A stretch of DNA of 46,997 bases from a virus (taxonomy: Duplodnaviria; Heunggongvirae; Uroviricota; Caudoviricetes), in the IMG/VR virus record IMGVR_UViG_2693429779_000010. The stretch is one strand, 5' to 3'. Both the position numbers and the translations under genes were made by a program. Positions within the stretch are counted from its first letter, which is position 1. Each line of letters starts with the position of its first letter. Below are positions 6,542-40,485 of the stretch, piece after piece. The notes beneath the pieces were generated by a model. That model had not been told where the DNA came from. It worked only from the letters and a program-made list of their open reading frames with translations, and did no database searches.

Positions 6542-6547
6542 GGAGTC

Positions 6548-7042
6548 ATGGCCATGATGATGATCTACGGCATGTTTGTTTTTGAGCTGCGTACATTGCC
6601 GCATCAGCAGTTACAGCAAAACAAAAGCTGGCGGCATGTGAAAAATGAACGCGTTAACCGTTCGGCAAGCTGGCAGTATATCGGTGCAGGTGATGAGCGC
6701 ATCGTTCTTTCTGGTGTGCTTTATCCTGAAATTACAGGTGGCGAAGTGTCGCTGTCGCTGCTGACCACGCAGGCGTATACAGGACGACCCTGGCCTCTGA
6801 TTGATGGCGTCGGGCAGATTTACGGCATGTATGTCCTGACCGAAACGAATACGACCCGCTCCGAGTTTGATCGCTACGGTAAGGCGAAAAAGATAGAATT
6901 TTCACTGACTCTTGAACGCTGTGATGAGGATTTGCGGGAGCGCCTGCAATCCTCATCGTTCAGCGATATGCTGTCCGGCTTCAAAGATAAGGTAACATCA
7001 TCCCTTAACAGCGCGGCCAGTTCAGTTAAAGGGTTGTTCTGA
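6548..7042 (+). CDS. U: Tail protein U (P2 gpU homolog)
   Basis: 164-aa ORF immediately after the tape-measure gene; size and position match P2 U. Confidence 0.75.
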   Translation: MAMMMIYGMFVFELRTLPHQQLQQNKSWRHVKNERVNRSASWQYIGAGDERIVLSGVLYPEITGGEVSLSLLTTQAYTGRPWPLIDGVGQIYGMYVLTETNTTRSEFDRYGKAKKIEFSLTLERCDEDLRERLQSSSFSDMLSGFKDKVTSSLNSAASSVKGLF

Positions 7043-7050
7043 TTTAACAC

Positions 7051-7088
7051 AAAAACCGCTAATGGTCAGATTAGCGGTTATTTTGTTT
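7051..7088. terminator. Bidirectional rho-independent terminator between convergent U and invertase genes
   Basis: AAAAA-ACCGCTAAT-ggtcag-ATTAGCGGT-TATTTTGTTT: 9-10 bp stem with A-tract on one side and T-tract on the other; pin stop codon lies in the stem. Confidence 0.6.
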
Positions 7089-7665
7089 CCTGACTCTTCT
7101 CTATTGTTCCGATTGATTCTCCTGCGGGGTGGTAACGATAAATCGTCGATATACCAATGCCGTAAATTATTGCCAGTTGTTTTCTGTCGTGCCCGTTTTT
7201 GATCAGCCTTGCTATTTGCTCATGCTGTTCTTTTGTCAGCTTCGGTCGACGTCCGCCTGTGCGCCCCCGTGCGCGTGCTGCCGCCAGTCCGGCCAGTGTA
7301 CGTTCAACAATTAATTCACGTTCCATTTCAGCCAGGGCACCCATCACGTGGAAGAAAAAACGCCCCATTGGAGAAGATGTATCTATGCTGTCGGTCAGAC
7401 TGCGAAAATTAATTCCTCGCTCCCGTAGTTCCCCGACGAGAGAAATCAGATGTTTCATGCTTCGCCCGAGGCGATCCAGTTTCCAGACAACCAGCGTGTC
7501 ACCTTTTTGAAGGCGCTTTAAAGCGCGTTTTAATCCCGGTCGGTCTGTCTTTGTCCCGCTTAATTTATCTTCAAATATTTGTTCACATCCTGCACAAACA
7601 AGAGCGTTTCGTTGCAGGTCTGTATTCTGGTCATTTGTTGATACCCTTACATAGCCAATCAGCAC
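7078..7665 (-). CDS. pin: Serine DNA invertase (Gin/Pin/Cin/Hin family)
   Basis: Translation ...LIGYVRVSTNDQNTDLQRNALVCAGCEQIFEDKLSGTKTDRPGLKRALKRLQKGDTLVVWKLDRLGRSMKHL... is near-identical to recalled Gin/Pin N-terminus. Likely GTG start at 7663-7665 (GGGAGA 6 nt upstream); track ORF extends to a TTG at 7683. Confidence 0.9.
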   Translation of the reverse strand: MLIGYVRVSTNDQNTDLQRNALVCAGCEQIFEDKLSGTKTDRPGLKRALKRLQKGDTLVVWKLDRLGRSMKHLISLVGELRERGINFRSLTDSIDTSSPMGRFFFHVMGALAEMERELIVERTLAGLAAARARGRTGGRRPKLTKEQHEQIARLIKNGHDRKQLAIIYGIGISTIYRYHPAGESIGTIEKSQETK

Positions 7666-7719
7666 GCTGAATCTCCCGTCCAAAAGCGCAAATCATGCCA
7701 TGCAGGCCGGAAACGGCCA

Positions 7720-7745
7720 TTATCTAAAACCTCGGTTTACAGGAA
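7720..7745 (+). other. pix/gix-type 26-bp crossover site 1, adjacent to the invertase
   Basis: TTATCTAAAACC-TC-GGTTTACAGGAA; one mismatch to recalled Mu gix (TTATCCAAAACCTCGGTTTACAGGAA); 12-bp arms around a 2-bp core. Confidence 0.8.
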
Positions 7746-7769
7746 ACGGTAAACAAGGCTGGTAACGCC

Positions 7770-8756
7770 GTGCAAAAAAATGGCGATACGTTGTCCGGTG
7801 GACTTACTTTTGAAAACGACTCAATCCTTGCCTGGATTCGAAATACTGACTGGGCAAAGATTGGGTTTAAAAATAATTCGGATGCAGACACCGATTCCTA
7901 CATGTGGTTTGAAACAGGCAACAACGGCAATGAATATTTCAAATGGAGACACCGCATCATTGGCACCCGGCCTAAAGACCTGATGAATCTTAAATGGAAT
8001 GCTTTGTCTGTTCTTGTTGAAGCCCTTTTCAGCAGTGAAGTGAAAATATCGACAGTCAATGCACTGAGGATATTTAATTCATCTTTTGGTGCCATTTTTC
8101 GTCGTTCTGAAGAATGCCTGCATATCATCCCTACACGAGAGAATGAAGGGGAAAATGGTAATATAGGGCCACTACGCCCCTTTACGCTTAATCTCAGAAC
8201 TGGCCGGATAAGCATGGGGCATGGTCTTGATGTTACAGGGGATATATTTGCAAACCGTTTTGCAATTAACAGTAGTACCGGCATGTGGATTCATATGCGT
8301 GACCAGAATGTTATTTTGGGACGTAATGCGGTATCCACTGATGGTGCTCAGGCTTTGCTCCGTCAGGACCATGCCGACCGCAAATTTATGATTGGCGGTC
8401 TGGGAAATAAGCAATTTGGCATCTACATGATTAATAACTCAAGGACAGCCAATGGCACCGATGGTCAGGCGTACATGGATAATAACGGGAACTGGCTTTG
8501 CGGCTCGCAAGTTATTCCCGGCAACTATGGCAATTTTGATTCCAGATATGTGAAAGATGTTCGACTTGGTTCACAGCAATATTATGGAGTGAACAACTGG
8601 CAAACATGGAATTTTCAGTGCCCGTCAGGCTATGTACTGACGGGGATTAACGTACAGGATACCGGAAAAAACTCTGCCGATAATATTGCAGGCGTTCATT
8701 ACAGGCCAGTGCAAAAGTATATAAATGGCACTTGGTATAATGTGGCGAGTATTTAA
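7770..8756 (+). CDS. Tail-fibre variable C-terminal cassette A (receptor-binding tip), currently not joined to a constant region
   Basis: Begins just after pix-1; ...[36 protein letters not shown]... and C-terminal ...[12 protein letters not shown] resemble the recalled P2 H distal part. In-frame stop inside pix-1 upstream means it needs inversion to be expressed. Confidence 0.75.
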
Positions 8757-8757
8757 T

Positions 8758-9285
8758 ATGATGCACTTAAAGAACATAAAAGCAGGTAATGCTAAAACAG
8801 TGGAGCAGTATGAGTTAACAAAGAAGCACGGAGTCATCTGGCTTTACTCTGAGGACGGAAAAAACTGGTATGAGGAAGTGAAGAACTTTCAGCCAGACAC
8901 AATAAAGATTGTTTACGATGCAAATAATATTATTGTCGCCATCACCAAAGATGCCTCCACGCTTAACCCTGAAGGTTATAGCGTCGTTGAGGTTCCTGAT
9001 ATTACAGCTAATCGTCGTGCTGATGATTCCGGTAAGTGGATGTTTAAGGACGGAGCTGTGGTTAAACGGATTTATACGGCTGACGAACAGCAACAACAGG
9101 CCGAATCACAAAAGGCCGCATTGCTTTCCGAAGCTGAATCAGTCATCCAGCCGCTGGAACGCGCTGTCAGGCTGAATATGGCGACGGACGAGGAACGCAC
9201 ACGACTGGAAGCATGGGAACGCTACAGTGTTCTGGTCAGCCGTGTGGATACGGCAAAGCCAGAATGGCCACAAAAGCCTGAGTAA
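8758..9285 (+). CDS. Tail fibre assembly protein (Tfa/gpG-like), cassette A
   Basis: [11 protein letters not shown]... start at 8758 (ATG overlapping TAATATG after the fibre gene); ~175 aa; conserved Tfa C-terminus shared with the cassette C copy. Confidence 0.8.
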
Positions 9286-9290
9286 AAATT

Positions 9291-9310
9291 AAGGCCCGAT
9301 ATCGGGCCTT
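9291..9310. terminator. Perfect 20-bp palindrome between convergent tfa genes
   Basis: AAGGCCCGAT|ATCGGGCCTT; identical copy at 13355-13374. Confidence 0.55.
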
Positions 9311-9313
9311 GTT

Positions 9314-9847
9314 TCATTCTGGTTGTTCGGGAAACGTTACTGGCAGGCTGGAGGTGTCTGTGGATTCGACCTTCTGCGCATAGAGCATCCACTCGGTTAA
9401 TTTTTGTTTATTCTCGTCGGAAATAATGCCCAGCCGTAGCTGTGAGTCCCATAGCTGGGTTTTATCCCTGACGAGCTGTAGCAGGCTTTGCTTTTCATTT
9501 TCCGCTTGTTGCCTCTGCTCTTCCCCGGTATAAGTTCGCTTTATCACTACGCCATCTTTGAACATCCATTTACCTGAAATATCAGCCCGGCGATTTGCTG
9601 TAATATCAGGAACCTCAACGACGCTTGCGCCTTCCGGATTAATTGCTGAAACATCCTTTTCAATACAAATAATAACGCCGTTGTGGTCATAGACCATTTT
9701 CAACGTATCAGGCTGAAAGTTCTTTTGTTCCTCATACCAGTTTTTCCCATCCTCTGTATAAAGCCATTTGATGTTAAATTGTTTCGTTAGCTGGTATTGC
9801 TCTTTTGTTTCAGGATTACCAGCAGAAATGTTTTTTAAGTGCATCAT
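9314..9847 (-). CDS. Tail fibre assembly protein, cassette B (copy 1)
   Basis: 177 aa, MMHLKNISAGNPETKEQ...; identical copy at 13378-13911. Confidence 0.8.
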   Translation of the reverse strand: MMHLKNISAGNPETKEQYQLTKQFNIKWLYTEDGKNWYEEQKNFQPDTLKMVYDHNGVIICIEKDVSAINPEGASVVEVPDITANRRADISGKWMFKDGVVIKRTYTGEEQRQQAENEKQSLLQLVRDKTQLWDSQLRLGIISDENKQKLTEWMLYAQKVESTDTSSLPVTFPEQPE

Positions 9848-9849
9848 CG

Positions 9850-10116
9850 TTAAATACTCCCCGCGTTATACCACGTCCCATTAATGCAATACTGAATTGG
9901 CCTTGCCTGAGTTGTATCAATTAGTTCATCTCTGTTTGAGTTAACGGAACCGGTAACAACATAACCTGACCTGTCAGACCATCCGGGACCATTCCATGTC
10001 TGAACAGATAACAGACCACCAAGGCGAATACCTGTAATAAACCTTGAGTTACATTCTGCCTGCGTATATGCACCAACATCTCCCGCAGAGGGTTTGCGGG
10101 TTGTGGTGTAAAACTC
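9850..10116 (-). pseudogene. 3' fragment of tail-fibre variable domain B, cut off from its 5' part by IS600 (copy 1)
   Basis: Encodes ...EFYTTTRKPSAGDVGAYTQAECNS...INGTWYNAGSI; the matching upstream codons (...GFEADWSE) lie at 18192 on the other side of IS600 copy 3. Confidence 0.75.
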
Positions 10117-11258
10117 TGAGGTGTACTGGCAATAGCGGACACTACCATTTGTTCTTTTTTTAAGCAGCCATCTGATGATATTTTTCCCTGAAGGCTGCCG
10201 GGGAGATATTCCCCAGACGAGAGTGACGACGCTGACGATTGTAGAAAATCTCAATGTATTCCCGTATTACTGAGATGGCTTCATCCCGGTTATTAAAACG
10301 ATAGTGGCTCAGGCTCTCATTTTTCAGCGTTCCCCAGAAGCTTTCCATCGGAGCGTTGTCGTAACAGTTACCTTTACGCGACATTGATGTTTTCAGACCA
10401 GACTGCTCCTGTATGACCCGGTAATCGTATGCGCAGTACTGTGAACCTCGATCAGAGTGGTGGATTAGCCCGGCAGGTGGGCGCTGGCTCCTGAGCGCCA
10501 TAAACAGGGCTTTACCTGTCAGCTCTTTTGTCATGCGCTCTCCCATGGCGTAGCCGACAATTTCGCACGTATAAACATCTTTGATGCCAGCGAGGTACAA
10601 CCATCCCTCCTGTGTGGCAACATACGTCAGGTCCGCCACCCAGACCTGATTTGGTGCTGTAGGAGCGAACGTCTGGTTCAGCAGATTTGGCGCAACTGGC
10701 AGATTGTGGTTCGAGTTCGTAGTCGCTCTGAACTTGCGTTTCTGCTTACAGCGTAGCCTTAGCTCCTTACGAAGACGTGCCAGTCGGTCACGACCAACGA
10801 TGATGCCATTCTCTGCCAGCTCCGTCTGGAGCCGCCGGGTTCCATATGTTTCGCGAGTGCGGATATGTGCCACCTTAATCTCCAGTTTTAGCCGCTCATC
10901 ACTTTGTTTTCTGTCTGAGGGTTCATGCTGTACCCAGTTGTAATAACCGCTCCTGGATACACCAAATACCTGACACATCGCTTCAATGGGAAATTGTTGT
11001 CGCCATTGTTCGATTAACGCGTATTTTTCAGCGACTCCTGTGCAAAATACGCTGTTGCTTTTTTTAATATATCTCGCTCAAGGCGAGCTTCATTTAACGC
11101 CTTACGCAGTTGCAGAATTTCAGATTCCAGTTCAGCCACCGTGCGGGAACCAGGAGTACCGAGCCCTTTTCTGGCGGCGGTAACCCATTGTCCTAAAGTG
11201 CCTTCAGGAAGAGATAATCGGGAAGCGCCTTCACTGATCGAAAGTTGATTTTCAAGAT
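10117..11258 (-). mobile_element. IS600 (IS3 family) copy 1, truncated at the orfA end
   Basis: Starts with TGAGGTGTACTGGCAATAGCGGACACT inverted repeat at 10117; identical to copies 2 and 3 up to ~11258 (...GATTTTCAAGA), then diverges into unrelated sequence. Confidence 0.85.
10160..10978 (-). CDS. IS600 transposase OrfB (DDE integrase domain)
   Basis: 272-aa ORF identical in all three copies; IS3-family OrfB. Confidence 0.9.
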   Translation of the reverse strand: MCQVFGVSRSGYYNWVQHEPSDRKQSDERLKLEIKVAHIRTRETYGTRRLQTELAENGIIVGRDRLARLRKELRLRCKQKRKFRATTNSNHNLPVAPNLLNQTFAPTAPNQVWVADLTYVATQEGWLYLAGIKDVYTCEIVGYAMGERMTKELTGKALFMALRSQRPPAGLIHHSDRGSQYCAYDYRVIQEQSGLKTSMSRKGNCYDNAPMESFWGTLKNESLSHYRFNNRDEAISVIREYIEIFYNRQRRHSRLGNISPAAFREKYHQMAA

Positions 11259-11645
11259 GGAACTCTATACGGAGCCACAATTCTTGGCGATGGAGTTGTG
11301 CACAATAGCTTCGGTCAAAAACTGATGCGCATTTACAATCAGAAAGGCATCTTTTCAAACACAAAAGATTCCGAAGAAGGCTTAACACATATACTCTCAG
11401 AGCATTTCGAGAATGTTAAAACCAGGGTTCAAGGTACTGTAGTAATGTTTTCCGCTTCAGGGAAAAAATAGCATCCAACCGCAGCACGTTCTTGCTTAAG
11501 ACGTGCTGCGGCATAATCCCAATGATTACTCCCTGACAGGGTTCGTAGGCCACTCAATATCAGGTGCAGTTGATGTATCAACACGGTTCAGCAACACCCG
11601 ATACTTTTTCTAGGCTTCCACCACCAGCACGACAAGATGCCGCAT
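11259..11645. other. ~390-bp segment of unknown origin joining truncated IS600 to the decayed invertase copy
   Basis: No match to IS600, the invertase region or fibre genes; contains hairpin GCAGCACGT-n11-ACGTGCTGC at ~11421-11449. Confidence 0.4.
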
Positions 11646-11870
11646 ACAGTGACCCAGTCAGTCCAGTTTTCAGACAACCAGTGCGTCACCTTTTTGAAGG
11701 CGCTTTAAAGCACGTTTTAATCCAGGTCGGCCTGTCCTTGTTCCGCTTAATTTATCTTCAAATATTTGTTCATATCCTGCACAAACAAGAGCGTTTCGTT
11801 GCAGGTCTGTATTCTGGTCATTTGTTGATACCCTTACATAGCCAATCAGCACGCTGAATCTCCCGTCCAA
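11646..11870 (-). pseudogene. Decayed duplicate of the invertase 5' end (pin')
   Basis: ~95% DNA identity to 7470-7700; TGG to TGA change gives ...GDALVV* where pin has ...GDTLVVWKLD; homology ends at ~11646. Confidence 0.8.
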
Positions 11871-11906
11871 AAGCGCAAATCATGCCATGCAGGCCGGAAA
11901 CGGCCA

Positions 11907-11932
11907 TTATCTAAAACCTCGGTTTACAGGAA
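11907..11932 (+). other. pix-type crossover site 2 (identical to site 1)
   Basis: TTATCTAAAACCTCGGTTTACAGGAA downstream of pin'. Confidence 0.8.
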
Positions 11933-11977
11933 ACGGTAAACAAGGCTGGTAACGCCGTTCAGCGTTCCGGCGATAAA

Positions 11978-12820
11978 ATGACCGGAGAACTGAAAATTGG
12001 CACGGTGAATGCGCTGCGAATTTTCAATGATACCTTCGGTCTAATTTTCCGTCGTTCAGAAGATTTTCTTCATTTCATTCCGACGGCTGAAGGACAAGGC
12101 GAAAACGGTAATATCGGCCCATTAAGGCCATTCGCTATAAATCTGAGAACAGGTGCTATATCTGTCAGCCACGGGGCCAAAATTAAAGGAGGTCTAGCTA
12201 TTGGAGCTACTGATAACGCACTGGGTGAAAACTCCATTGTTCTGGGAGATAACGACACCGGATTTAGGCAAGATGGAGATGGTATTATTAGCTTCTATTC
12301 AAATGGTTCGCGCATCGGACATATTGATGAGTTAGGATTACATCTTTATAAAGATATTGAATCTAATGGCAGCAATTTTAGATTAAAAAGTAATTACCGC
12401 CACCACATTACATTCGCCAACGAAGACGGAAGAATTCGTATGTTTTTGTGGAAAGATAACGGTGGTGATGGTGTTCATATTAATAACGGTTCAGATGGTG
12501 GTGGTGATTTCATTTTTAAAACAGATGGGGGATTTGCGCTGGGAAGTGGTGCGCAAGTTGCGTCTAGTGGCGATATTTATGGTTCAGTGTGGGAAAACAA
12601 CTGGTTAAGCACATGGCTGCATAATCATGTCGTTCGGGATATTCGTCTTGGCAGCATTGAATATAAAAACGTATGGCGCGACTACGGCTTTGGCGATGCG
12701 TCAGGTTATGTTTTAACAGCCGCAATTAACAGCAATGCGGATGATATTGTCGACACTGTTGCCAGAAGGCCAATTCAGAAATTGATTGGGGGAATATGGT
12801 ACAACGTGGGGAGTGTTTAA
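11978..12820 (+). CDS. Tail-fibre variable C-terminal cassette C
   Basis: Open in frame from pix-2 (...[26 protein letters not shown]...), ends ...[13 protein letters not shown]; related to cassette A but lacks its ~90-aa N-proximal segment. Confidence 0.75.
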
Positions 12821-12821
12821 G

Positions 12822-13349
12822 ATGATGCACCTGAAAAATATTAAGGCCGGGAATCCGAAAACACCGGAACAATACCAGCTAACTAAAAAAGCGGGCGTGG
12901 TATGGCTCTTTTGCGAAGATGGCAAAAACTGGTATGAGGAACAAAAGAATTTTCAGCCAGACACCATAAAAATTGCTTACGATGAGAACAACATCATCGT
13001 TGCTGTCAGTAAAGACGTTTCAACTATTAATCCTGAAGGGCTAAGCATAGTTGAAGTTCCTGATATTACGGCAAATCGTCACGCAGACAATAACGGAAAA
13101 TGGATGTTTCTGGATGGTAAAGTAGTAAAGAGGGAATATACAGAACAGGAACTGCAACAACAGGCCGAATCACAAAAGGCCGCATTGCTTTCCGAAGCTG
13201 AATCAGTCATCCAGCCGCTGGAACGCGCTGTCAGGCTGAATATGGCGACGGACGAGGAACGCACACGACTGGAAGCATGGGAACGCTACAGTGTTCTGGT
13301 CAGCCGTGTGGATACGGCAAAGCCAGAATGGCCACAAAAGCCTGAGTAA
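12822..13349 (+). CDS. Tail fibre assembly protein, cassette C
   Basis: [17 protein letters not shown]...; C-terminal ~65 aa identical to tfaA. Confidence 0.8.
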
Positions 13350-13354
13350 AAATT

Positions 13355-13374
13355 AAGGCCCGATATCGGGCCTT
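13355..13374. terminator. Second copy of the 20-bp palindrome
   Basis: Identical to 9291-9310. Confidence 0.5.
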
Positions 13375-13377
13375 GTT

Positions 13378-13911
13378 TCATTCTGGTTGTTCGGGAAACG
13401 TTACTGGCAGGCTGGAGGTGTCTGTGGATTCGACCTTCTGCGCATAGAGCATCCACTCGGTTAATTTTTGTTTATTCTCGTCGGAAATAATGCCCAGCCG
13501 TAGCTGTGAGTCCCATAGCTGGGTTTTATCCCTGACGAGCTGTAGCAGGCTTTGCTTTTCATTTTCCGCTTGTTGCCTCTGCTCTTCCCCGGTATAAGTT
13601 CGCTTTATCACTACGCCATCTTTGAACATCCATTTACCTGAAATATCAGCCCGGCGATTTGCTGTAATATCAGGAACCTCAACGACGCTTGCGCCTTCCG
13701 GATTAATTGCTGAAACATCCTTTTCAATACAAATAATAACGCCGTTGTGGTCATAGACCATTTTCAACGTATCAGGCTGAAAGTTCTTTTGTTCCTCATA
13801 CCAGTTTTTCCCATCCTCTGTATAAAGCCATTTGATGTTAAATTGTTTCGTTAGCTGGTATTGCTCTTTTGTTTCAGGATTACCAGCAGAAATGTTTTTT
13901 AAGTGCATCAT
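13378..13911 (-). CDS. Tail fibre assembly protein, cassette B (copy 2)
   Basis: Identical to 9314-9847. Confidence 0.8.
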   Translation of the reverse strand: MMHLKNISAGNPETKEQYQLTKQFNIKWLYTEDGKNWYEEQKNFQPDTLKMVYDHNGVIICIEKDVSAINPEGASVVEVPDITANRRADISGKWMFKDGVVIKRTYTGEEQRQQAENEKQSLLQLVRDKTQLWDSQLRLGIISDENKQKLTEWMLYAQKVESTDTSSLPVTFPEQPE

Positions 13912-13913
13912 CG

Positions 13914-14180
13914 TTAAATACTCCCCGCGTTATACCACGTCCCATTAATGCAATACTGAATTGGCCTTGCCTGAGTTGTATCAATTAGTTCATCTCTGTT
14001 TGAGTTAACGGAACCGGTAACAACATAACCTGACCTGTCAGACCATCCGGGACCATTCCATGTCTGAACAGATAACAGACCACCAAGGCGAATACCTGTA
14101 ATAAACCTTGAGTTACATTCTGCCTGCGTATATGCACCAACATCTCCCGCAGAGGGTTTGCGGGTTGTGGTGTAAAACTC
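13914..14180 (-). pseudogene. 3' fragment of fibre variable domain B (copy 2), abutting IS600 copy 2
   Basis: Identical to 9850-10116. Confidence 0.75.
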
Positions 14181-14223
14181 TGAGGTGTACTGGCAATAGC
14201 GGACACTACCATTTGTTCTTTTT

Positions 14224-15042
14224 TTAAGCAGCCATCTGATGATATTTTTCCCTGAAGGCTGCCGGGGAGATATTCCCCAGACGAGAGTGACGACGCTGAC
14301 GATTGTAGAAAATCTCAATGTATTCCCGTATTACTGAGATGGCTTCATCCCGGTTATTAAAACGATAGTGGCTCAGGCTCTCATTTTTCAGCGTTCCCCA
14401 GAAGCTTTCCATCGGAGCGTTGTCGTAACAGTTACCTTTACGCGACATTGATGTTTTCAGACCAGACTGCTCCTGTATGACCCGGTAATCGTATGCGCAG
14501 TACTGTGAACCTCGATCAGAGTGGTGGATTAGCCCGGCAGGTGGGCGCTGGCTCCTGAGCGCCATAAACAGGGCTTTACCTGTCAGCTCTTTTGTCATGC
14601 GCTCTCCCATGGCGTAGCCGACAATTTCGCACGTATAAACATCTTTGATGCCAGCGAGGTACAACCATCCCTCCTGTGTGGCAACATACGTCAGGTCCGC
14701 CACCCAGACCTGATTTGGTGCTGTAGGAGCGAACGTCTGGTTCAGCAGATTTGGCGCAACTGGCAGATTGTGGTTCGAGTTCGTAGTCGCTCTGAACTTG
14801 CGTTTCTGCTTACAGCGTAGCCTTAGCTCCTTACGAAGACGTGCCAGTCGGTCACGACCAACGATGATGCCATTCTCTGCCAGCTCCGTCTGGAGCCGCC
14901 GGGTTCCATATGTTTCGCGAGTGCGGATATGTGCCACCTTAATCTCCAGTTTTAGCCGCTCATCACTTTGTTTTCTGTCTGAGGGTTCATGCTGTACCCA
15001 GTTGTAATAACCGCTCCTGGATACACCAAATACCTGACACAT
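14224..15042 (-). CDS. IS600 transposase OrfB
   Basis: 272 aa, identical to other copies. Confidence 0.9.
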   Translation of the reverse strand: MCQVFGVSRSGYYNWVQHEPSDRKQSDERLKLEIKVAHIRTRETYGTRRLQTELAENGIIVGRDRLARLRKELRLRCKQKRKFRATTNSNHNLPVAPNLLNQTFAPTAPNQVWVADLTYVATQEGWLYLAGIKDVYTCEIVGYAMGERMTKELTGKALFMALRSQRPPAGLIHHSDRGSQYCAYDYRVIQEQSGLKTSMSRKGNCYDNAPMESFWGTLKNESLSHYRFNNRDEAISVIREYIEIFYNRQRRHSRLGNISPAAFREKYHQMAA

Positions 15043-15077
15043 CGCTTCAATGGGAAATTGTTGTCGCCATTGTTCGA

Positions 15078-15380
15078 TTAACGCGTATTTTTCAGCGACT
15101 CCTGTGCAAAATACGCTGTTGCTTTTTTTAATATATCTCGCTCAAGGCGAGCTTCATTTAACGCCTTACGCAGTTGCAGAATTTCAGATTCCAGTTCAGC
15201 CACCGTGCGGGAACCAGGAGTACCGAGCCCTTTTCTGGCGGCGGTAACCCATTGTCCTAAAGTGCCTTCAGGAAGAGATAATCGGGAAGCGCCTTCACTG
15301 ATCGAAAGTTGATTTTCAAGAACCGTTCTGACAGCTTCGGCTTTGAACTCTTTAGAGTAACGTTGGGTTTTTCTGCTCAT
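15078..15380 (-). CDS. IS600 OrfA (HTH transposase N-terminal subunit)
   Basis: 100 aa MSRKTQRYSKEFKAEAVRTV...; TTAAAAAAAGC slippery run near the orfA/orfB overlap. Confidence 0.9.
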   Translation of the reverse strand: MSRKTQRYSKEFKAEAVRTVLENQLSISEGASRLSLPEGTLGQWVTAARKGLGTPGSRTVAELESEILQLRKALNEARLERDILKKATAYFAQESLKNTR

Positions 15381-15444
15381 TATTAGCTCCTTCTGATGCC
15401 ATTCTATTTCAGGAAGGAGTGTCCGTTAAACTCAGGCTACCTCA

Positions 15445-15937
15445 AGTCTGTGGATTCAACCTTCTGCGCATAGAGCATCCACTCGGTTAATTTTTGTTTA
15501 TTCTCATCGGAAATGATGCCCAGCTGTAGCTGAGAGTCCCACAGCTGGGTTTTATCCCTGACGAGCTGCAGCAGGCTCTGCTTTTCATTTTCCGCTTGTT
15601 GCCTTTGCTCTTCCTCGGTATAAGTTCGCTTTATCACCGCACCATCTTTGAACATCCAGTTGCCCGAAATATCAGCCCGGCGATTTGCTGTAATATCAGG
15701 CAACTCAACGACACTTAAACCTTCTGGATTAATTGCTGATACATCCTTGTCTATAGCAATAATTATTCCCTCAACTGTGTAAGCCAGTTTTATTGTATCC
15801 TCCTGAAAGTTTTTTAATTCCTCATGCCAATTTTTTCCATCTTCGGACCATAACCAGATAACATCAAAATTCTTTGTTAGCTGGTATTGTTCAACGGTTT
15901 TTGGATTACCTGCGACAATGTTTTTTAAATGCTGCAT
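15445..15937 (-). CDS. Tail fibre assembly protein, cassette D, C-terminus truncated by IS600 copy 2
   Basis: [15 protein letters not shown]...KVESTD then runs into the IS end (LR*); the last ~11 codons seen in tfaB are missing. Confidence 0.75.
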
Positions 15938-15939
15938 GA

Positions 15940-16927
15940 TTATACCTGCGATACGTTATACCATGTTCCGTTAATTAACTTTTGTATTGGTCTGAATACT
16001 GCCGGATCATCACCATCGACTTCACCGATAATACCAAGCCCCGTGATTACATGGCCTGATTTTTCATACATCACGCCTTTCTTCATGGTCTAAACAACTC
16101 GTGTGCCAAGTCTGACATCTCTCACATAGCGGGAATCAAAGTTACCGTAATCCGAGGGATTAACACGTCCCGTAATATTTATGGTTTTATTACTTTGAAT
16201 GCTTCCGGAGACAAAGCGCATAACATGGACGTTATTAGCATAAACATCCAGATTACCATCGCCTTTTTGTTTAAAGCCCGTGTCATTATCACCCAATACA
16301 ATCGAATTACCGCCAAGAGCACTGGATGTTCCGATACCCAGTGCACCATTCAGTTGACCACCAGATAACGGCAGTGCACCAACATCTCCTGCTGAAGGTT
16401 TTCTGGTGGTGTAAAATTCGGACCAGTCGGCTTCAAAACCATAACCATCACGGGCTGAACGATAAAAAATACCGCCATTTTTATAATTAATCCGAAACTG
16501 AGCTGCAGGACAACTTCCTTCTCCCATATAAAAATGAATAATTAACGTTGATGCACCACTAATAGTTGCGTTATAGGCTCCGCTACTCCAGTTCCATCCA
16601 ACTGCTTTATCATTCGCAACGGTGCTTCCTGTTTTCCCTAAGGCAAACGCACCAACATGACTTGCTTTTAATGTGATATCGGAGGAACCATCAAAAGCCA
16701 CATTGCTTATTTTCCTGGCAGTTTTTAATTTTGCAGCTGTAGAAGCATTGCCGGATAGTTCACCAGAAAGGCCACCGCTGAATGTTTGTCGATTAGTCCA
16801 GGTATTCGCTGTACTGAGTAACGGTATTTTCTCCCCGCTTGTGCCGAGTTCTCGTAAACCGAGGTATTCGATAACGGCAGCAACGGTCGATTTCGCAAGA
16901 ATATCCCGCCCGACTTTTGTCAGGGTA
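15940..16927 (-). pseudogene. Tail-fibre 3' portion D (end of constant region, pix-like site, variable domain) with in-frame amber stop; 5' end cut by IS600 copy 3
   Basis: ...TLTKVGRDILAKSTVAAVIEYLGL...DVRLGTRVV-TAG-TMKKGVMYEKSGHVITGL...[11 protein letters not shown]; the TAG at 16090-16092 sits where recalled P2 H has Gln. Confidence 0.7.
16849..16874 (-). other. Degenerate pix-like site inside fibre fragment D (inverted orientation)
   Basis: TTCTCGTAAACC-GA-GGTATTCGATAA; 4 mismatches to the reverse complement of pix-1; encodes VIEYLGL. Confidence 0.55.
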
Positions 16928-16970
16928 TGAGGTGTACTGGCAATAGCGGACACTACCATTTGTTCTTTTT

Positions 16971-17789
16971 TTAAGCAGCCATCTGATGATATTTTTCCCT
17001 GAAGGCTGCCGGGGAGATATTCCCCAGACGAGAGTGACGACGCTGACGATTGTAGAAAATCTCAATGTATTCCCGTATTACTGAGATGGCTTCATCCCGG
17101 TTATTAAAACGATAGTGGCTCAGGCTCTCATTTTTCAGCGTTCCCCAGAAGCTTTCCATCGGAGCGTTGTCGTAACAGTTACCTTTACGCGACATTGATG
17201 TTTTCAGACCAGACTGCTCCTGTATGACCCGGTAATCGTATGCGCAGTACTGTGAACCTCGATCAGAGTGGTGGATTAGCCCGGCAGGTGGGCGCTGGCT
17301 CCTGAGCGCCATAAACAGGGCTTTACCTGTCAGCTCTTTTGTCATGCGCTCTCCCATGGCGTAGCCGACAATTTCGCACGTATAAACATCTTTGATGCCA
17401 GCGAGGTACAACCATCCCTCCTGTGTGGCAACATACGTCAGGTCCGCCACCCAGACCTGATTTGGTGCTGTAGGAGCGAACGTCTGGTTCAGCAGATTTG
17501 GCGCAACTGGCAGATTGTGGTTCGAGTTCGTAGTCGCTCTGAACTTGCGTTTCTGCTTACAGCGTAGCCTTAGCTCCTTACGAAGACGTGCCAGTCGGTC
17601 ACGACCAACGATGATGCCATTCTCTGCCAGCTCCGTCTGGAGCCGCCGGGTTCCATATGTTTCGCGAGTGCGGATATGTGCCACCTTAATCTCCAGTTTT
17701 AGCCGCTCATCACTTTGTTTTCTGTCTGAGGGTTCATGCTGTACCCAGTTGTAATAACCGCTCCTGGATACACCAAATACCTGACACAT
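16971..17789 (-). CDS. IS600 transposase OrfB
   Basis: 272 aa, identical to other copies. Confidence 0.9.
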   Translation of the reverse strand: MCQVFGVSRSGYYNWVQHEPSDRKQSDERLKLEIKVAHIRTRETYGTRRLQTELAENGIIVGRDRLARLRKELRLRCKQKRKFRATTNSNHNLPVAPNLLNQTFAPTAPNQVWVADLTYVATQEGWLYLAGIKDVYTCEIVGYAMGERMTKELTGKALFMALRSQRPPAGLIHHSDRGSQYCAYDYRVIQEQSGLKTSMSRKGNCYDNAPMESFWGTLKNESLSHYRFNNRDEAISVIREYIEIFYNRQRRHSRLGNISPAAFREKYHQMAA

Positions 17790-17824
17790 CGCTTCAATGG
17801 GAAATTGTTGTCGCCATTGTTCGA

Positions 17825-18127
17825 TTAACGCGTATTTTTCAGCGACTCCTGTGCAAAATACGCTGTTGCTTTTTTTAATATATCTCGCTCAAGGCGAGCT
17901 TCATTTAACGCCTTACGCAGTTGCAGAATTTCAGATTCCAGTTCAGCCACCGTGCGGGAACCAGGAGTACCGAGCCCTTTTCTGGCGGCGGTAACCCATT
18001 GTCCTAAAGTGCCTTCAGGAAGAGATAATCGGGAAGCGCCTTCACTGATCGAAAGTTGATTTTCAAGAACCGTTCTGACAGCTTCGGCTTTGAACTCTTT
18101 AGAGTAACGTTGGGTTTTTCTGCTCAT
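17825..18127 (-). CDS. IS600 OrfA
   Basis: 100 aa, identical to copy 2. Confidence 0.9.
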   Translation of the reverse strand: MSRKTQRYSKEFKAEAVRTVLENQLSISEGASRLSLPEGTLGQWVTAARKGLGTPGSRTVAELESEILQLRKALNEARLERDILKKATAYFAQESLKNTR

Positions 18128-18191
18128 TATTAGCTCCTTCTGATGCCATTCTATTTCAGGAAGGAGTGTCCGTTAAACTCAGGCTACCTCA

Positions 18192-20765
18192 CTCTGACCA
18201 GTCAGCTTCAAAGCCATAACCATCACGCGCTGAACGATAAAAAATACCGCCGTTCCTGTAATTCACGCGGAACTGTACAGCAGGGCAGCTCCCCGTATTC
18301 ATATTGAAGTGGAGGATTAATGTCGATGCGCCACCAATGTTTGCGTTATAGACCCCGCTATTCCAGTTCCAGCCAACAGCTTTATCATTTCCGACAGTGC
18401 TTCCTGTTTGCCCTAAAGCAAATGCAGGTTGTTGATTTTTCGTGTTGTAGTCTCGTCGCCAGCCAGGAGCGTAAGCATCACCATGATTAATATAAGTGAA
18501 TTGAGCGTTAGTAATTCCGCCACCGCTGGACGTGCTCGGCGTGGTAACGCGTATGGTCATTGCGCCGCGAGTGCCAATAACTTCCACCACAGCACCTGCA
18601 AGACAAATATTTCCGCAACCTGTATCTGTAATGACCTTATTATTTGCATAAGCCCATGAGCCTTTGCACATCCAGTAAGGATGGTTAAATGCTCCCTGAC
18701 TCTCCAGCCACGAAATAAATTGCGCGGTTGTCCAGACCTGACTATCGCCACCAATATTCAGCCATGAGCTATATGCGCGGCAGGCACCAATATTTTTGGT
18801 GAAGGTATCTTTCCCCGGAATATCTGCGCCGTTCTGGTTTTTCTGTAATGCGCCAGAAGCCTGATTTACCGTTTCCTGTAAACCGAGGTATTCGATAACG
18901 GCGGCAACGGTCGATTTCGCAAGAATATCCCGCCCGACTTTTGTCAGGGTTGCCAGGCTGGCGACATCATTCCCCGTAAAATACGGAAACTTGCCTGCCG
19001 CAGTAGTAAGTCCGGCCAGCGCCGTCAGGGTGGCATCTTTCGGTTGCTTACCCGCAAGCGCGTTAGTCATGGTGGTCGCAAAATTCGGGTCGTTGCCCAG
19101 CGCCGCAGCCAGCTCGTTCAGCGTGTTCAGTGCATCAGGTGACGAATCTACAAGGGCGGCAATCGCAGCCATAACGAAAGCCGTGCTTGCGATTTGGGTA
19201 TTATTCGTTCCCTGTCGCGCAGTTGGTGTTGTTGGCGTTCCGGTCAGTGCAGGACTATTTAAGGGCGCTTTCTTGTTCGTTTCACCCATTACCGCCTTAA
19301 CCGCTTTTGGCGTTGCCGCCAGTGACTCGGAAGTGCTGTTGGTCGCACTGCTGAGCTGTACTATCCCCTTTTTCGTCGTGCTCGCATCCTCCAGCGCCAC
19401 GGCGGATGCAATATCCTCTGCCCGTTTTGCTGCTGTCTCGGCGCGCGTTGCCGCGGATTCAGCAGCAACTTTGCTCTGAGATGCAGCCGTCGCACTGCCT
19501 GCCGCCTCTGATGCTTTCGTTGTTGCTGTCGTGGCACTACCTTTCGCTGCTGACGCTTGTCTGGTCGCCTCATCTTTTGAAGCAGACGCAGATGATGCCG
19601 ATGACGCCGCTGAACTGGCTGACGATGCGGCTGCTGCCTTAGAGGAAGCAGCATTGTCTGCTGAAGTCTTTGCATTTGTTTCAGAGGTTTTTGCTGCAGA
19701 AGCAGACCTCGCTGCTGCAGTGGCTTGCTCAGTGGCTTTGCCAGCCTTCGTTGTGGCTGTTGAAGCGGATGATGCGGCGCTTTCTGCCGATTTTCCGGCG
19801 GCGGTGGCACTGGCTGAGGCCTGCCCGGCACTTGTTGACGCGGCGCTGGCAGACGACGCAGCCGCTGTTTTTGAGCCTGCCGCAGCTGAGGCACTCTGTC
19901 CCGCTGCCGTTTCAGAAGACCTGGCGTTCGTCTCGGACGTTTTGGCCGCCTTCGCAGAATTTGCAGCCGCCGTCGCCGAGGAAGCTGCGCTACTGGCGCT
20001 TGATGATGCGTTCGTTTCTGATGATTTTGCCGCCTCTTTTGAAGCCGACGCATCCCGGGCTGAGGTGGCAGCTTCTGACGCTTTCGTGGTCGCGGTGGAT
20101 GCAGAAGTGGCTGCTGATTGTTGTGACGCTGCCGCATTCGTTTCTAACGTTTTCGCCGCACCGGCACTGGTAGCCGCCGCGCTTTTTGAGGACTCTGCAG
20201 CGGCAGCACTTTTTGAGGCTTCAGTGGCCTTTGTTGATGCCGTTCCTGCGCTGGAAGACGCTGACTGAGCCGACGAAGCGGCCTGTCCGGCTGACGTGCT
20301 GGCTGCACGTGCTGAATCTGCAGCATCAGTCGCATGGGTTGCCGCCTCACGGGCTGATGTGCTGGCATCGCTGGCTGATTTCTTCGCGGCTGCCGTGTTC
20401 TGTGCCACCGCGGACGCGTTACGCGCCACCTCTTCCACCATCAGCTCAAAACGGCGCAGTGCCTCCGGACGGGCATCATCCTCCGTCATGGCACCGAGAA
20501 AATCATTCAGCGTACCGGGTCGGGAATCTTCATACACGGTGATGGTCCCGGCATGTGACGGCGGGAATCCTTCCACCAACAGAATAACGCTGTACTGACC
20601 GTACTCAACGTCCATGCTGTAACGCCCGGCTTCATCCGGATTTTCTGAGGCCAGCGTGTTCACCACCACCGTGGTGCTGTTACGTTTTGCTTTCAGCTGG
20701 ATTGTGCAGTTCTGTACCGGTTTTCCTGTGCCGTCTTTCAGTACACCTGAAATCTTTACTGCCAT
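18192..20765 (-). CDS. stf: Lambda Stf-like side tail fibre (N-terminal anchor, Ala/Ser/Thr-rich shaft, constant region, 5' part of variable domain B); 3' end interrupted by IS600 copy 3
   Basis: MAVKISGVLKDGTGKPVQNCTIQLKAKRNSTTVVVNT...GRYSMDVEYGQYSVIL... matches recalled lambda Stf N-terminus; ORF ends ...GFEADWSE at the IS600 terminal TGA. ATG at 20763-20765. Confidence 0.85.
18873..18898 (-). other. pix-type crossover site inside stf at the constant/variable boundary (inverted relative to sites 1 and 2)
   Basis: TTCCTGTAAACC-GA-GGTATTCGATAA; 2 mismatches to the reverse complement of pix-1, with complementary GA/TC core; encodes ...VIEYLGLQE. Confidence 0.75.
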
Positions 20766-20828
20766 ATTCACCCCACAAAAAAGCCCGCCTGAACCGGCGG
20801 GCTGTCATAACACTGTGTTACCTGGCTA

Positions 20829-21190
20829 ATCAGAATTTATAACCGACACCCACGATGAAACCGTCAGTGCGCCAGAGACGTGTTGCTGTGGCGACCGTCA
20901 TCACTTCCGGTCAGCACATCGTGCGTTTTCCCCTTATTGTCAGTTACGCGGATATAATCCCCGGAAAAAGTCGACACACGGCTGTAAGCCACACCCGCCA
21001 TCGCATACGCGCTGAACCATTCATTCACGCGCACAGACGGCCCCGCCATCACGCTGAACCAGCGGTTACGCACGGAATCTTCATGCCAGCGGGTATCGCT
21101 GTAACGGGTCAGCTGGCGATTCTTGTCTCCTGCATAGCTGAATGACGTCACCAGCCCCAGCGTATCCGTAAACTCATAACGGTATTTCAC
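20829..21190 (-). pseudogene. lom: lom-like (Ail/Lom/OmpX family) outer-membrane protein gene remnant: 5' truncated, internal deletion and frame break
   Basis: ...INVKYRYEFTDTLGLV...VMAGP...AYAMAGVA... parallels recalled lambda Lom; the final ...WRTDGFIVGVGYKF* (ending 20829) is in a different frame from the 108-aa ORF. Confidence 0.75.
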
Positions 21191-21201
21191 GTTAATCCCG
21201 T

Positions 21202-22077
21202 TCAGATAGTGGCATCTTTCGGTTGCTTACCCGCAAGCGCGTTAGTCATGGTGGTCGCAAAATTCGGGTCGTTGCCCAGCGCCGCCGCCAGCTCGTTCAG
21301 TGTGTTCAGTGCATCAGGCGAAGAGTCTACAAGTGCGGCAATCGCAGCCATAACGAAAGCCGTGCTTGCGATTTGGGTATTATTCGTTCCCTGTCGCGCA
21401 GTTGGTGTTGTTGGCGTTCCGGTCAGTGCCGGGCTGTTTAATGGGGCTTTCTTGTTCGTTTCATCCATTACTGCCTTAACGGCTTTTGGTGTCGCTGCCA
21501 GCGTTTCAGACGTGCTGTTGGTGGCGTTGCTGAGCTGGACAAGGCCTTTTGCGGTCAGCGAGGCGTCCGGGTGACGTCGTGACTGTTCATGCTCTTTCAG
21601 TTTGTCATCCACGTAATTCACTGTGGCCATCACCATGGTGTTATCCACGGTAAGCGCCACAGTGGCAGTGCTGGATACGGTCAGAATGGTGCGAAATGTT
21701 TGTGCACGTCCGGATCCTTCGGCAACGGTTGGCTTGTAACTTTCGGCAGTATTGCCTACCGCGATCAAATCGCCGTGCTCATCAAACACACCAATTTCCC
21801 GGATCCAGAATCCGCCCGTTTCAGGAGGAATAACCAGCTCCGCAATAATGTGGTTCTGATGTGTTGCGTCCAGGGTGACGCGATTAACGGTATGTCGCCA
21901 CACCTCATGCACAAGACGGGTCTGCTTACTGTCTGGCGTGGGTAAAGTACCGCCGCCGTCACCCACGGCCATATGTGTCAGGCGGACAGGTTTCCCATCT
22001 GGCGCGGTTGCCTGCGCTAATTTTTTTGCACCCGTATCGGTGATAATGGTTTTAAATTTTCGTGTTGTGGTACTCAT
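21202..22077 (-). pseudogene. H: P2 gpH-type tail fibre N-terminal portion (291 aa), truncated at the junction with the lom'/stf block
   Basis: MSTTTRKFKTIITDTGAKKLAQATAP...HEVWRH...IIAELVIPPE... resembles recalled P2 H N-terminus; ends ...AGKQPKDATI* at 21202, far short of a full H. Confidence 0.8.
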
Positions 22078-25800: not shown

Positions 25801-26068
25801 CTGTCGTGATATCGTTGCGTAGCTGTTCACGTCGGATTTCCCCTTCCTGTTGTCGGTTCTGGCGCGCTGTCATGACGTCACGCAGTACACCGGATGCGGT
25901 GCTGATGATGGTGCCGGCCTCTTTCAGGGTCCGGCTGTAATCGTCCAGTTGCGCCTGTGTATAACGGTTGTGTCCGTCTTCCTGCCCCAGTCTGAATGTC
26001 TGCCAGAGTGTTATGGTCAGCAGCGTGAGGACGGTCAGTGCCATCATCAGGATGTAACGCACTTTCAT
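25595..26068 (-). CDS. i-spanin (LysB/Rz-like) with N-terminal transmembrane anchor
   Basis: MKVRYILMMALTVLTLLTITLW... followed by charged coiled-coil region; located after the endolysin; exact 3' end uncertain. Confidence 0.55.
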   Translation of the reverse strand: MKVRYILMMALTVLTLLTITLWQTFRLGQEDGHNRYTQAQLDDYSRTLKEAGTIISTASGVLRDVMTARQNRQQEGEIRREQLRNDITTDACARAVPDARFTERLHQHAERVRAAAVVPFHPGRADRPRTSPAVSGDAIMGKHRDMERQPHGRTGNL

Positions 26069-26153
26069 GACTGGCCTCCGGTGTCACGTAAGCACCATGC
26101 ACGAAAATCAGTACGACGGTTAACCAGTCCCTGTGAGCGTTCGCCGCCGCTGT

Positions 26154-26609
26154 TCACGAAGTCAGTCTGTTGCACATGTCAGGCCAGTTGTGCGCCTGTG
26201 CATGTTTCCAGATAGTGGTGCGGTGGTAGTTACGGTTCTTATCCCTGAACCACATAAGATTTCTGCATCCAAGATTAAAGGCGGCATCTGTCATTGCCTC
26301 AAACGCGGACTGTGGCATGGCGTTGCCGCTGAAGTTCTGATTTATGCAGTTTTCTGCATGTTGCATATCATTAACCCAGCGCCCGGCGACTTCCGTTTCG
26401 GTGTACAGACGATTTTCCACATGCCCGGTCGAGCCGCACCCCACGGTCATTACCCCGGCAATATCCCGGTAAGGCGTTGCGCGACAGTCCTCCCATGTGG
26501 CAATGCGGATTTGCGCTTCCGGGCTGGTCCGGAGTTTGTGAGGGGCAATGGAGAACCCCAGCGCCACAATGGCGGCTACGGCGTAACGTTTAACGGGCAG
26601 CTTTATCAT
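26154..26609 (-). CDS. K: Endolysin, T4-lysozyme-like (GH24) with N-terminal signal-anchor (SAR-type)
   Basis: EDCRATPYRDIAGVMTVGCGSTGHV resembles the catalytic region of recalled P21-R-type endolysins; weakly hydrophobic N-terminus AVAAIVALGFSIA. Confidence 0.75.
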   Translation of the reverse strand: MIKLPVKRYAVAAIVALGFSIAPHKLRTSPEAQIRIATWEDCRATPYRDIAGVMTVGCGSTGHVENRLYTETEVAGRWVNDMQHAENCINQNFSGNAMPQSAFEAMTDAAFNLGCRNLMWFRDKNRNYHRTTIWKHAQAHNWPDMCNRLTS

Positions 26610-34080: not shown

Positions 34081-34320
34081 CTATTTACTCTTCTCGGCCC
34101 TCAAAATCATACGAGAACCATCATCCAGCTCCCAATTAATTTCACCGCCTTCTGCCATGACTAGATGCCAAACGAGTTGAGCGGCCTCGTTGGTTACATC
34201 GCGACCGCGATCATTTCCTACGCGGCGTTTTGTTCCGTCTCCTAAGTCACGCATTTTTGCCAATACGATGGTTTTTGATAGCGGTGAAAAACCAAGCTGT
34301 AGTCGTGCTGAATTACTCAC
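34081..34320 (-). CDS. Hypothetical protein (79 aa)
   Basis: GTG start overlaps the stop of the upstream 174-aa ORF (GTGA), suggesting translational coupling. Confidence 0.45.
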   Translation of the reverse strand: MSNSARLQLGFSPLSKTIVLAKMRDLGDGTKRRVGNDRGRDVTNEAAQLVWHLVMAEGGEINWELDDGSRMILRAEKSK

Positions 34321-34841
34321 TGGCTGCCCCCTTTGTACTGTGTTAACTCTTCCTGCTCCTGCATCATGCGATTGACCTGAACGCGTGTGCGTCGAACGGC
34401 AAAATTAAATTGAAACATGAGCCGGAACATTTCTGATGCTTCCGTGTGAGCATCACGGATAGGTGACAGGCGGTACAGTTCTGCCTCCGTAGCTTGTTGA
34501 ATCAATGACAGATCAAATTGAAGTGCGGGTCTGGTACATTTTGCACATCTGGCAGCAAGCTCCGGTATTAGTCTCTTAACGAAGGTGTTTTGCACCGCTT
34601 TGTTGATTTGTGTCTGCATCCAAATCGCAAATTTCAGCGAACGCATAAGTTTGATAGCCTCGGGCAGCGGCAGATAGATCATGCTGGTAGATTTGGGTGG
34701 TTGGTGAACCATCTTCACGGATACGCGATTTCGCAGCGTTCGGAAAATCGTGTTCCCAACAACAGCTTCTACGGATACAGGACAGGGAGCCAGACCAGCC
34801 CGCAGTGCTTCTTTCATTAGCATGTATTCGTATTTTTTCAT
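34317..34841 (-). CDS. Hypothetical protein (174 aa)
   Basis: GAGGAA RBS 6-7 nt before ATG; no recognisable motif. Confidence 0.5.
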   Translation of the reverse strand: MKKYEYMLMKEALRAGLAPCPVSVEAVVGNTIFRTLRNRVSVKMVHQPPKSTSMIYLPLPEAIKLMRSLKFAIWMQTQINKAVQNTFVKRLIPELAARCAKCTRPALQFDLSLIQQATEAELYRLSPIRDAHTEASEMFRLMFQFNFAVRRTRVQVNRMMQEQEELTQYKGGSQ

Positions 34842-34901
34842 CGTGTTTTCCTCGTGCGGGGCGACAGTGCACCCCGATAAAATTAAAAGCCGTCAAATTC
34901 G

Positions 34902-39448: not shown

Positions 39449-39589
39449 TGCGGCAATCCTCTTGTTACAGATGTGCGAAGGCCTCCCGCCGCAAGGTGCA
39501 GGAAAGGCCCGGAACAGGAATTAATGGAGTTTGTTTTGCTGCCGGATGAGCTGCTGAAGCCCGACGTGGTTTCCGGCAGTTGGAGGTGC

Positions 39590-40035: not shown

Positions 40036-40231
40036 TACGCCTCCTTGGCGTGTGCGAATACCTCCGCGAATGCGGATTGTTTTCACATTTTCTTATTTAA
40101 CCTGGGGTCTTATTTGCGCGGTTATTCTTCAGTGAAAAAGCGTTCAATCTTTTTTACTGAATTAATAATTCGCATAATCCCAATGGCGCAGACCACCGAA
40201 ATAATCAGAACAAGCCATGAAATAAATATAC

Positions 40232-40477: not shown

Positions 40478-40485
40478 AACGCCCT

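Follow-up and report, generated by a model that had tools for sequence, protein, structure and literature searches.

Can a phage whose tail fiber gene has been broken by an insertion sequence (IS) regain a functional fiber by inverting a segment of its own DNA? This question is raised by a P2-family prophage (positions 200–42800) in the IMG/VR virus record IMGVR_UViG_2693429779_000010. The 46,997-bp stretch that was analyzed, here called the window, is the whole of contig CXBH01000022.1 from the draft assembly GCA_001253915.1, an IS600-rich E. coli/Shigella genome. It contains a side-tail-fiber open reading frame (ORF), stf, that is interrupted by IS600, together with silent fiber cassettes and a gene for a DNA invertase. 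The initial annotation of the region, based on the letters of the DNA, proposed that inversion could replace the interrupted fiber arm with an intact cassette, and that the switch could therefore act as a rescue. Our analysis retains the geometry of this switch, the cores of its crossover sites, the reading frames and the intact invertase, but not the functional fiber for induced particles. The locus is probably a Gin/Pin-type invertible fiber region of a P2-family prophage, currently with cassette B in the expressed position and heavily degraded, in which inversion alone would not rescue the phage.

The enzyme of the switch is complete. The gene at 7081..7665 (minus strand) encodes an intact Gin/Pin-family serine DNA invertase of 195 aa, a small serine recombinase in which a catalytic N-terminal domain (Ser9/10) is followed by a helix-turn-helix at the C-terminus; the invertase of E. 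coli FDAARGOS_943 matches it at 100% identity. Residues 1–113 differ from Mu Gin at one position only (K39R), the nucleophile Ser9 is present, and the protein matches the Gin structures 4m6f and 3uj3 (E = 3.7e-101). The first ~330 nt of the gene and the site next to it share about 99% identity with Mu gin and gixR; the Fis-dependent recombinational enhancer of Mu is located within the 5′ part of gin.

Using the Mu gix consensus (TTCCTGTAAACCGAGGTTTTGGATAA), we identified four 26-bp gix-like sites in the window, two per orientation, each with the central dinucleotide GA when read in its own orientation. They have the features of the sites of Din inversion systems, which are 26 bp long, imperfectly symmetric, inverted and provided with the same 2-bp core. 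The sites pix-a (7720–7745, minus strand; core TC on the plus strand at 7732–7733) and pix-b (11907–11932, minus strand) are identical in sequence and each carry 1 mismatch to the gix consensus, and pix-d (18873–18898, plus strand; 2 mismatches, core GA at 18885–18886) lies inside stf. The fourth, pix-c (16849–16874, plus strand; 4 mismatches, core GA), is in direct orientation with pix-d and was not used in the initial annotation. At a threshold of at most 3 mismatches, 3 sites were observed against 0.00 expected (100 shuffles of the window, 0 matches).

The closest complete relative of the prophage is found in E. coli FDAARGOS_943 (NZ_CP065615), which is 99.8% identical over 13 kb and has the gene layout U, invertase, pix, silent cassette, tfa, tfa, H (678 aa), I, J. 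Positions 6501–7760 of the window are collinear with this genome, 7716–10119 match it in reverse (99.83%), and 18191–18902 match its silent cassette in reverse (99.6%). In FDAARGOS_943 cassette A is expressed and cassette B is silent, whereas in the window it is A that is silent, and the constant region continues into B. This flipped arrangement is the best available evidence, by comparison of the two sequences, that inversion may have taken place in the lineage. Among complete E. coli genomes, the invertase-pix-A junction is present in 227 and the invertase-pix-B junction in 136.

Two of the silent cassettes could supply a complete fiber tip. Cassette A (7734..8756, plus strand) is intact and shows 99.8% DNA identity to the expressed C-terminus of gene H in FDAARGOS_943; it is followed by tfaA (8758..9285, plus strand), encoding a fiber assembly chaperone of 175 aa that is 100% identical to the protein of the relative and matches PF02413 end to end. 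Cassette C (11921..12820, plus strand) is also intact, and is followed by tfaC (12822..13349, plus strand; 175 aa, no stops, PF02413 end to end), which is 85.7% identical to tfaA of the relative. In silico exchange of 18873 with 7720 yielded an uninterrupted ORF of 969 aa that includes cassette A (stop at 8756), and exchange of 18873 with 11907 an uninterrupted ORF of 928 aa that includes cassette C (stop at 12820). Both recombinant junctions, which the initial annotation had suggested building, were thus free of a frame break; the junction peptides are those it had quoted, and each fusion is followed by an intact tfa gene as it had stated. The arrangement of constant region, pix and cassette C is moreover found as an annotated full-length fiber gene in 4 E. 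coli genomes (96–97% identity). An inversion that joins A or C in frame to stf would be mechanistically plausible.

The constant region to which these cassettes would be joined does not belong to the fiber gene of the resident phage. The stf ORF (18189..20771, minus strand), which IS600 cuts short at 860 aa, has a complete lambdoid 5′ end, with the head domain PF08400 at residues 3–136, and is 95% identical to stf of an E. coli lambdoid prophage, where it adjoins J and lom. Upstream, the P2-type tail-fiber gene, here called H′ (21202..22077, minus strand), contains PF12571 and PF03406 and is truncated at residue 291, ending in ...KDATI. Its residues 1–291 are 99.7% identical to the 678-aa H of FDAARGOS_943, but the continuity of PF12571 with a receptor-binding C-terminus that marks a functional P2 H is lost, as H stops at 291 of 678. 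A three-way alignment shows that at 21207/21208 the P2-type H gives way to internal sequence of a lambdoid lom gene, the junction having CAGA microhomology. The resulting lom′ fragment (20864..21207, minus strand) lacks both ends, covers positions 53–159 of 199 of the PF06316 profile, and has an internal break in its alignment to lom of the lambdoid relative. The H′/lom′ junction was not found among 5,426 complete E. coli genomes, nor among the GTDB species representatives.

We found no lambdoid tail genes in the contig: lom is a fragment, the lambdoid J is absent, and the neighbors are the P2 genes I, J, W, and V. The PF08400 head of a functional lambdoid Stf is present, but its lambdoid late-operon setting is not. 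Since the baseplate genes I, J, W, and V are 99.5–100% identical to those of the relative, the resident P2-type baseplate should need a fiber with a PF12571 head. We infer that the product of inversion would be an orphan lambdoid-headed fiber, because it would not dock on the P2-type baseplate, there is no lambdoid tail here, and a terminator-like hairpin lies upstream of its gene. Such an orphan fiber means that inversion alone would not rescue the phage. Of the two gene defects that the initial annotation had considered fatal to its proposal, an inactive invertase is absent, the enzyme being intact and 100% identical to that of the relative, but an inactive essential tail gene is present, as H is cut at codon 291 and the ORF completed by inversion is lambdoid-headed (PF08400).

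A route back to a P2-type fiber can nevertheless be drawn. The shared collar region is present twice as a direct repeat (19030..19388 with 21209–21567, minus strand); the two copies are 89% identical along their 359 bp, contain perfectly matching blocks (95 and 77 bp) and are in the same reading phase. Deleting in silico the 2179 bp between these repeats, in combination with the inversion 18873 × 7720, gives a 678-aa H that is 3 residues off the H of the relative. Restoring a P2-type fiber would thus take two events, a homologous deletion of 2179 bp and an inversion, and even then a defect in the lysozyme gene would stay. This phage lysozyme gene (26068..26609, minus strand) has a 4-bp deletion (one AGTC unit) that causes a frameshift: compared to FDAARGOS_943 an AGTC tandem repeat has gone from three units to two at ~26159, which shifts the frame after residue 150 of 182. 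The truncated product covers positions 2–104 of 125 of PF00959. The loss of the AGTC unit could be slipped-strand variation or a sequencing error.

Expression of the fiber arm is doubtful as well. The terminator-like hairpin (20782..20803, minus strand) has an 8-bp stem with 7 GC pairs and a T-run, and precedes the start of stf by ~10 nt. The centroid structure has an energy of -13 kcal/mol, the minimum free energy being -18.6 kcal/mol, and the hairpin with the T-run (27 nt) occurs unchanged between lom and stf in two lambdoid relatives from E. coli. A search of 20600–21400 gave no sigma-70-like promoter. Together, the hairpin, the lack of such a promoter and the lysozyme frameshift weaken the idea of an expressed arm or of particle formation. 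The context of the hairpin is hybrid, as it lies within what would be the P2 late transcript. Lambdoid phages read through such terminator signals with Q-modified polymerase, whereas P2 late operons are not known to use antitermination.

The remaining fiber modules in the window are damaged. Cassette D (15940..16860, minus strand) can be joined in frame to the stf constant region in silico, as can A and C, but it is a pseudogene: a CAA to TAA nonsense mutation at 16090–16092 replaces the glutamine of RVVQTMKK, found in the intact fiber gene of E. coli NCTC86, with a stop, and D is otherwise 98.9% identical to this gene. Relative to the same gene, D also has an in-frame deletion of 3 nt near 16412. 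The accompanying chaperone gene, tfaD′ (15445..15937, minus strand), is cut by IS600 copy 2, has lost ~13 C-terminal residues and aligns to residues 1–164 of 177. On the other side of D lies an orphan stub of a second fiber constant region (TLTKVGRDILAKSTVAAVIEY; 16875..16927, minus strand), 53 bp in length, that is a 96% direct repeat of 18873–18950 and is cut by IS600 copy 3 with the unmatched flank GTA. Deletion between the direct sites 18873 and 16849 was considered as a third route to rescue and rejected; the product is in frame, but D carries the nonsense codon and tfaD′ is truncated. Enzymes of the Gin/Pin family disfavor deletion between direct sites.

In a simple four-site model, 12 isomers are reachable by inversion, which place A (4 isomers), C (2), D (2) or the broken B (4) at stf. 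With more than two sites and several C-termini that fuse in frame to one constant region, the locus has the organization of shufflon-like systems. It departs from a working one in that not all cassettes are intact and the constant region is not that of a working structural gene: B is split, D has a nonsense codon, tfaD′ is truncated and stf is an orphan.

The element that breaks the fiber gene is IS600 (1264 bp, 99.9% identical to elements annotated as IS600), of which the window contains three copies. The stf ORF closes at copy 3 (16928..18191, minus strand; full length, 1264 bp, hybrid flanks GTA and CTC) with ...GFEADWSE, and the continuation, EFYTT..., adjoins copies 1 and 2. Of cassette B, the N-terminal piece (18192..18884, minus strand), which shows 100% identity to the silent B of FDAARGOS_943, is at present joined to stf. 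The C-terminal piece (9850..10116, minus strand) abuts IS600 with the flank CTC and is a 100% match to residues 159–247 of the relative. As the intact B cassette of FDAARGOS_943 aligns over residues 1–160 and 159–247, both at 100% identity, the split by IS600 cost cassette B nothing else.

A second copy of the C-terminal piece of B (13914–14180) is found with tfaB at 13378..14180 (minus strand), an exact duplicate at an offset of 4064. It is part of an exact duplication of 2168 bp (9090–11257 and 13154–15321), which takes in, besides tfaB and the C-terminal piece of B, the 3′ end of a tfa gene and 1141 bp of IS600; the first copy of tfaB (9314..9847, minus strand) encodes a protein of 177 aa that is 100% identical to that of the relative. 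The right edge of the duplication is also the point at which IS600 copy 1 is truncated and its interior fuses to a methyltransferase remnant (11257/11258). Copy 1 (10117..11257, minus strand) is missing 123 bp, among them one terminal repeat and the beginning of orfA; it is identical to copy 3 over 16928–18068 only, and its orfA ORF has a replaced N-terminus. Copy 2 (14181..15444, minus strand) is full length, with the hybrid flanks CTC and AGT.

The flanks of the three copies give an indication of their origin. The CTC triplet is common to the right of copy 3 and the left of copies 1 and 2, which suggests one original insertion with target duplication; the position of the split in variable domain B given by the initial annotation (...ADWSE / EFYTT) agrees with this. 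For the flanks GTA (left of copy 3) and AGT (right of copy 2) no partner was found within the window. These unpartnered flanks require at least three independent IS600 insertions, followed by exchanges between the elements.

Sequence to the right of copy 1 is of lambdoid origin. A prophage end fragment at 11258..11906 (minus strand) consists of a methyltransferase remnant, a tfa remnant and a truncated invertase stub (11565–11870), which aligns to invertase residues 1–99 with 73% identity and 3 stops. The lambdoid end module as a whole (11258–13153; methyltransferase remnant, invertase stub, pix, C, tfaC) shares 96% identity with E. coli E66.

From these features a possible history can be proposed. 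The original unit would have read invertase - pix - A - tfaA - tfaB - B - pix - H constant region, as in FDAARGOS_943, and IS600 would first have inserted into cassette B. Exchanges between IS600 copies and illegitimate joins may then have imported fiber modules from at least two lambdoid prophages, one comprising the invertase stub, pix, C and tfaC and the other the constant-region stub, pix, D and tfaD′, with duplication of the 2168-bp block. Finally, a lambdoid lom′-stf fragment would have been spliced into H, with one end at or near pix and the other, illegitimate, end at H codon 291. The outcome would be an accidental inversion system of four sites and three segments beside one intact invertase. 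A P2-to-lambdoid switch exactly at the pix core, as expected of an exchange mediated by the invertase, was considered and dropped; P2-identical sequence runs to 18990 and is near-identical in lambdoid relatives.

Several points weigh against the reading of the locus as a degraded switch that does not rescue its phage, or against parts of it. Inversion in this strain is itself a prediction from sequence, and the order of the historical events is a reconstruction. The transition from P2 to lambdoid sequence can be placed only between the pix core and 18990, where site-specific and homologous exchange would look the same. That a PF08400-headed fiber would not serve a P2-type baseplate is inferred from domain families. 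A lambdoid prophage elsewhere in the genome could in principle use the Stf fiber, the scope of the analysis being this contig. The hairpin, lastly, is a consensus match only, and in that 800-bp stretch chance alone would produce 0.8 of them.

Alternative explanations make different use of the same observations. That the locus is a working rescue switch, in which inversion swaps the IS600-broken arm for an intact cassette and yields a functional fiber on induced particles, would fit the in-frame junctions, the intact tfa genes and invertase, and the fact that most P2 structural genes are intact and 99–100% identical to those of the relative. We nevertheless regard it as very unlikely: H is truncated at residue 291, the completed ORF has a lambdoid head domain with no lambdoid tail genes to go with it, the hairpin precedes stf and the lysozyme gene is frameshifted. 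Conversely, the locus might be a fossil in which no inversion occurs, for instance with a silent invertase, or with synapsis over 7–11 kb and competing sites being too inefficient. The segments indeed far exceed the relative's unit of ~3 kb, frozen segments with truncated invertases are present in many E. coli lambdoid prophages, and this prophage bears several inactivating lesions. A frozen state is still unlikely in view of the 100% conserved invertase, its putatively enhancer-bearing 5′ region that is about 99% identical to Mu gin, and the opposite orientation of the relative at 99.8% identity, which points to a recent flip in the lineage. According to published work, enhancers of the Din family also work at a distance, and Pin enzymes even act in trans on other prophages (PMC12529663).

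The arrangement could also be an artifact of assembly, with the three IS600 copies and the 2168-bp duplication reflecting misassembled isomers or two prophage loci; a 47-kb draft contig that makes up the whole window and carries 100%-identical repeats of 1.1–2.2 kb invites this suspicion. However, the odd joins at 11257/11258 and 21207/21208 (CAGA) are at non-repeat positions, typical of real illegitimate events, the IS flanks give a coherent story of target-site duplication, and the contig was reported in 2 samples, so that we consider an artifact improbable. The least probable of the explanations, in our opinion, is a host-domesticated role, in which orphan Stf chimeras would work for the cell, for instance by hiding its receptors from incoming phages. 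It draws on the precedent of PinQ/StfE2 in E. coli K-12 (PMC12529663) and on the presence of an orphan stf with intact alternative tips, chaperones and invertase inside a phage that would be unable to use them. The current isomer, however, encodes a truncated product, and the decay of cassette D and tfaD′ argues against selection on the whole array. A degraded, invertible fiber region that does not restore its phage by inversion alone is the reading that we prefer.

The rest of the prophage is largely that of a P2-family phage. Genes D, FI, FII, E, T, and U come first on the plus strand, followed on the minus strand by H, I, J, W, V, S, and R, the genes for lysis, and then L, M, N, and O. The plus strand carries P and Q, for terminase and portal, after which ParM and replication gene A lie on the minus strand. 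The left contig end is ~190 bp past gene D, which places the left boundary of the prophage, and any late activator gene, off the contig; the right end of the window corresponds to the btuCED-nlpC region of the E. coli/Shigella chromosome. The prophage adjoins btuCED-nlpC, and its immunity/integration module (39585–42849) differs from that of the relative, with 43% identity for the repressor and 48% for the integrase. Near the portal-side cargo region, 34341–34901 has been replaced compared to the relative prophage, and a 174-aa ORF here (34317–34841, minus strand) has no Pfam match. A search for defense genes in the P2 cargo region (33.4–35.2 kb) with Pfam gave nothing recognizable.

For the field as a whole the locus, an ordinary case of prophage decay, changes little, as invertible fiber cassettes, multi-site variants in P2-like prophages and IS-driven prophage decay in Shigella-like genomes are already established. 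It does show that the shared collar region and the pix sites let P2-type and lambdoid prophages swap fiber parts, that an in-frame junction is insufficient as evidence of a working fiber, and that an intact invertase can outlast the ability of its phage to use it. Its interest would rise only if inversion were active and the orphan chimeras had a role in the host. There is a slim chance that the locus is a live four-site shufflon, built by IS600 and illegitimate recombination from the modules of three prophages, whose Stf::A and Stf::C products might serve the cell. If so, it would capture multi-site inversion systems in the course of their formation, and the chimeras might mask receptors, as StfE2 does, rather than serve the virion.

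Among known systems, the locus is closest in its recombination machinery to the G segment of Mu with Gin, the C segment of P1 with Cin and the P segment of e14 with Pin. It shares with these the near-identical catalytic domain, 26-bp sites (here 1–2 mismatches from gix) with a GA core, the location of the sites within the fiber gene, the swapping of C-termini together with their own chaperones, and an invertase gene beside one site. It differs from the Mu type in having four sites instead of two, segments of 7–11 kb with three IS600 copies, and a constant region that is a misplaced lambdoid stf and not the fiber gene of the resident phage. The P2-family segment of FDAARGOS_943 has the same cassettes A and B, chaperones and invertase in a backbone that is 99.8% identical. 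In P2-like prophages of enteropathogenic E. coli (EPEC), two-site and three-site fiber inversion has been described, with all isomers coexisting in culture (PMC4272514). The three-site shufflon of a P2-like prophage in EPEC E2348/69 shows that a system with more than two sites can yield several isomers side by side (PMC4272514). Unlike in the FDAARGOS_943 and EPEC segments, H is truncated here, B is split by IS600, and the extra cassettes are lambdoid imports and not native.

Two further systems delimit what the locus represents. The Min system of plasmid p15B combines one Din-family invertase with several crossover sites and several fiber C-termini. Min is compact and coherent, whereas the array described here would be a by-product of scrambling by IS elements, with two of the four cassettes intact. 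In K-12, PinQ acts on the P segment of the defective prophage e14 to give the chimeric StfE2, for which an anti-phage effect was demonstrated (PMC12529663). The likeness is that a Pin-family enzyme of one prophage recombines the fiber cassettes of another, defective prophage into Stf chimeras; the anti-phage phenotype belongs to PinQ/StfE2, whereas the present locus is known from its sequence. Against this background the locus is a degraded, composite example of invertible fiber regions, and not a new kind of system.

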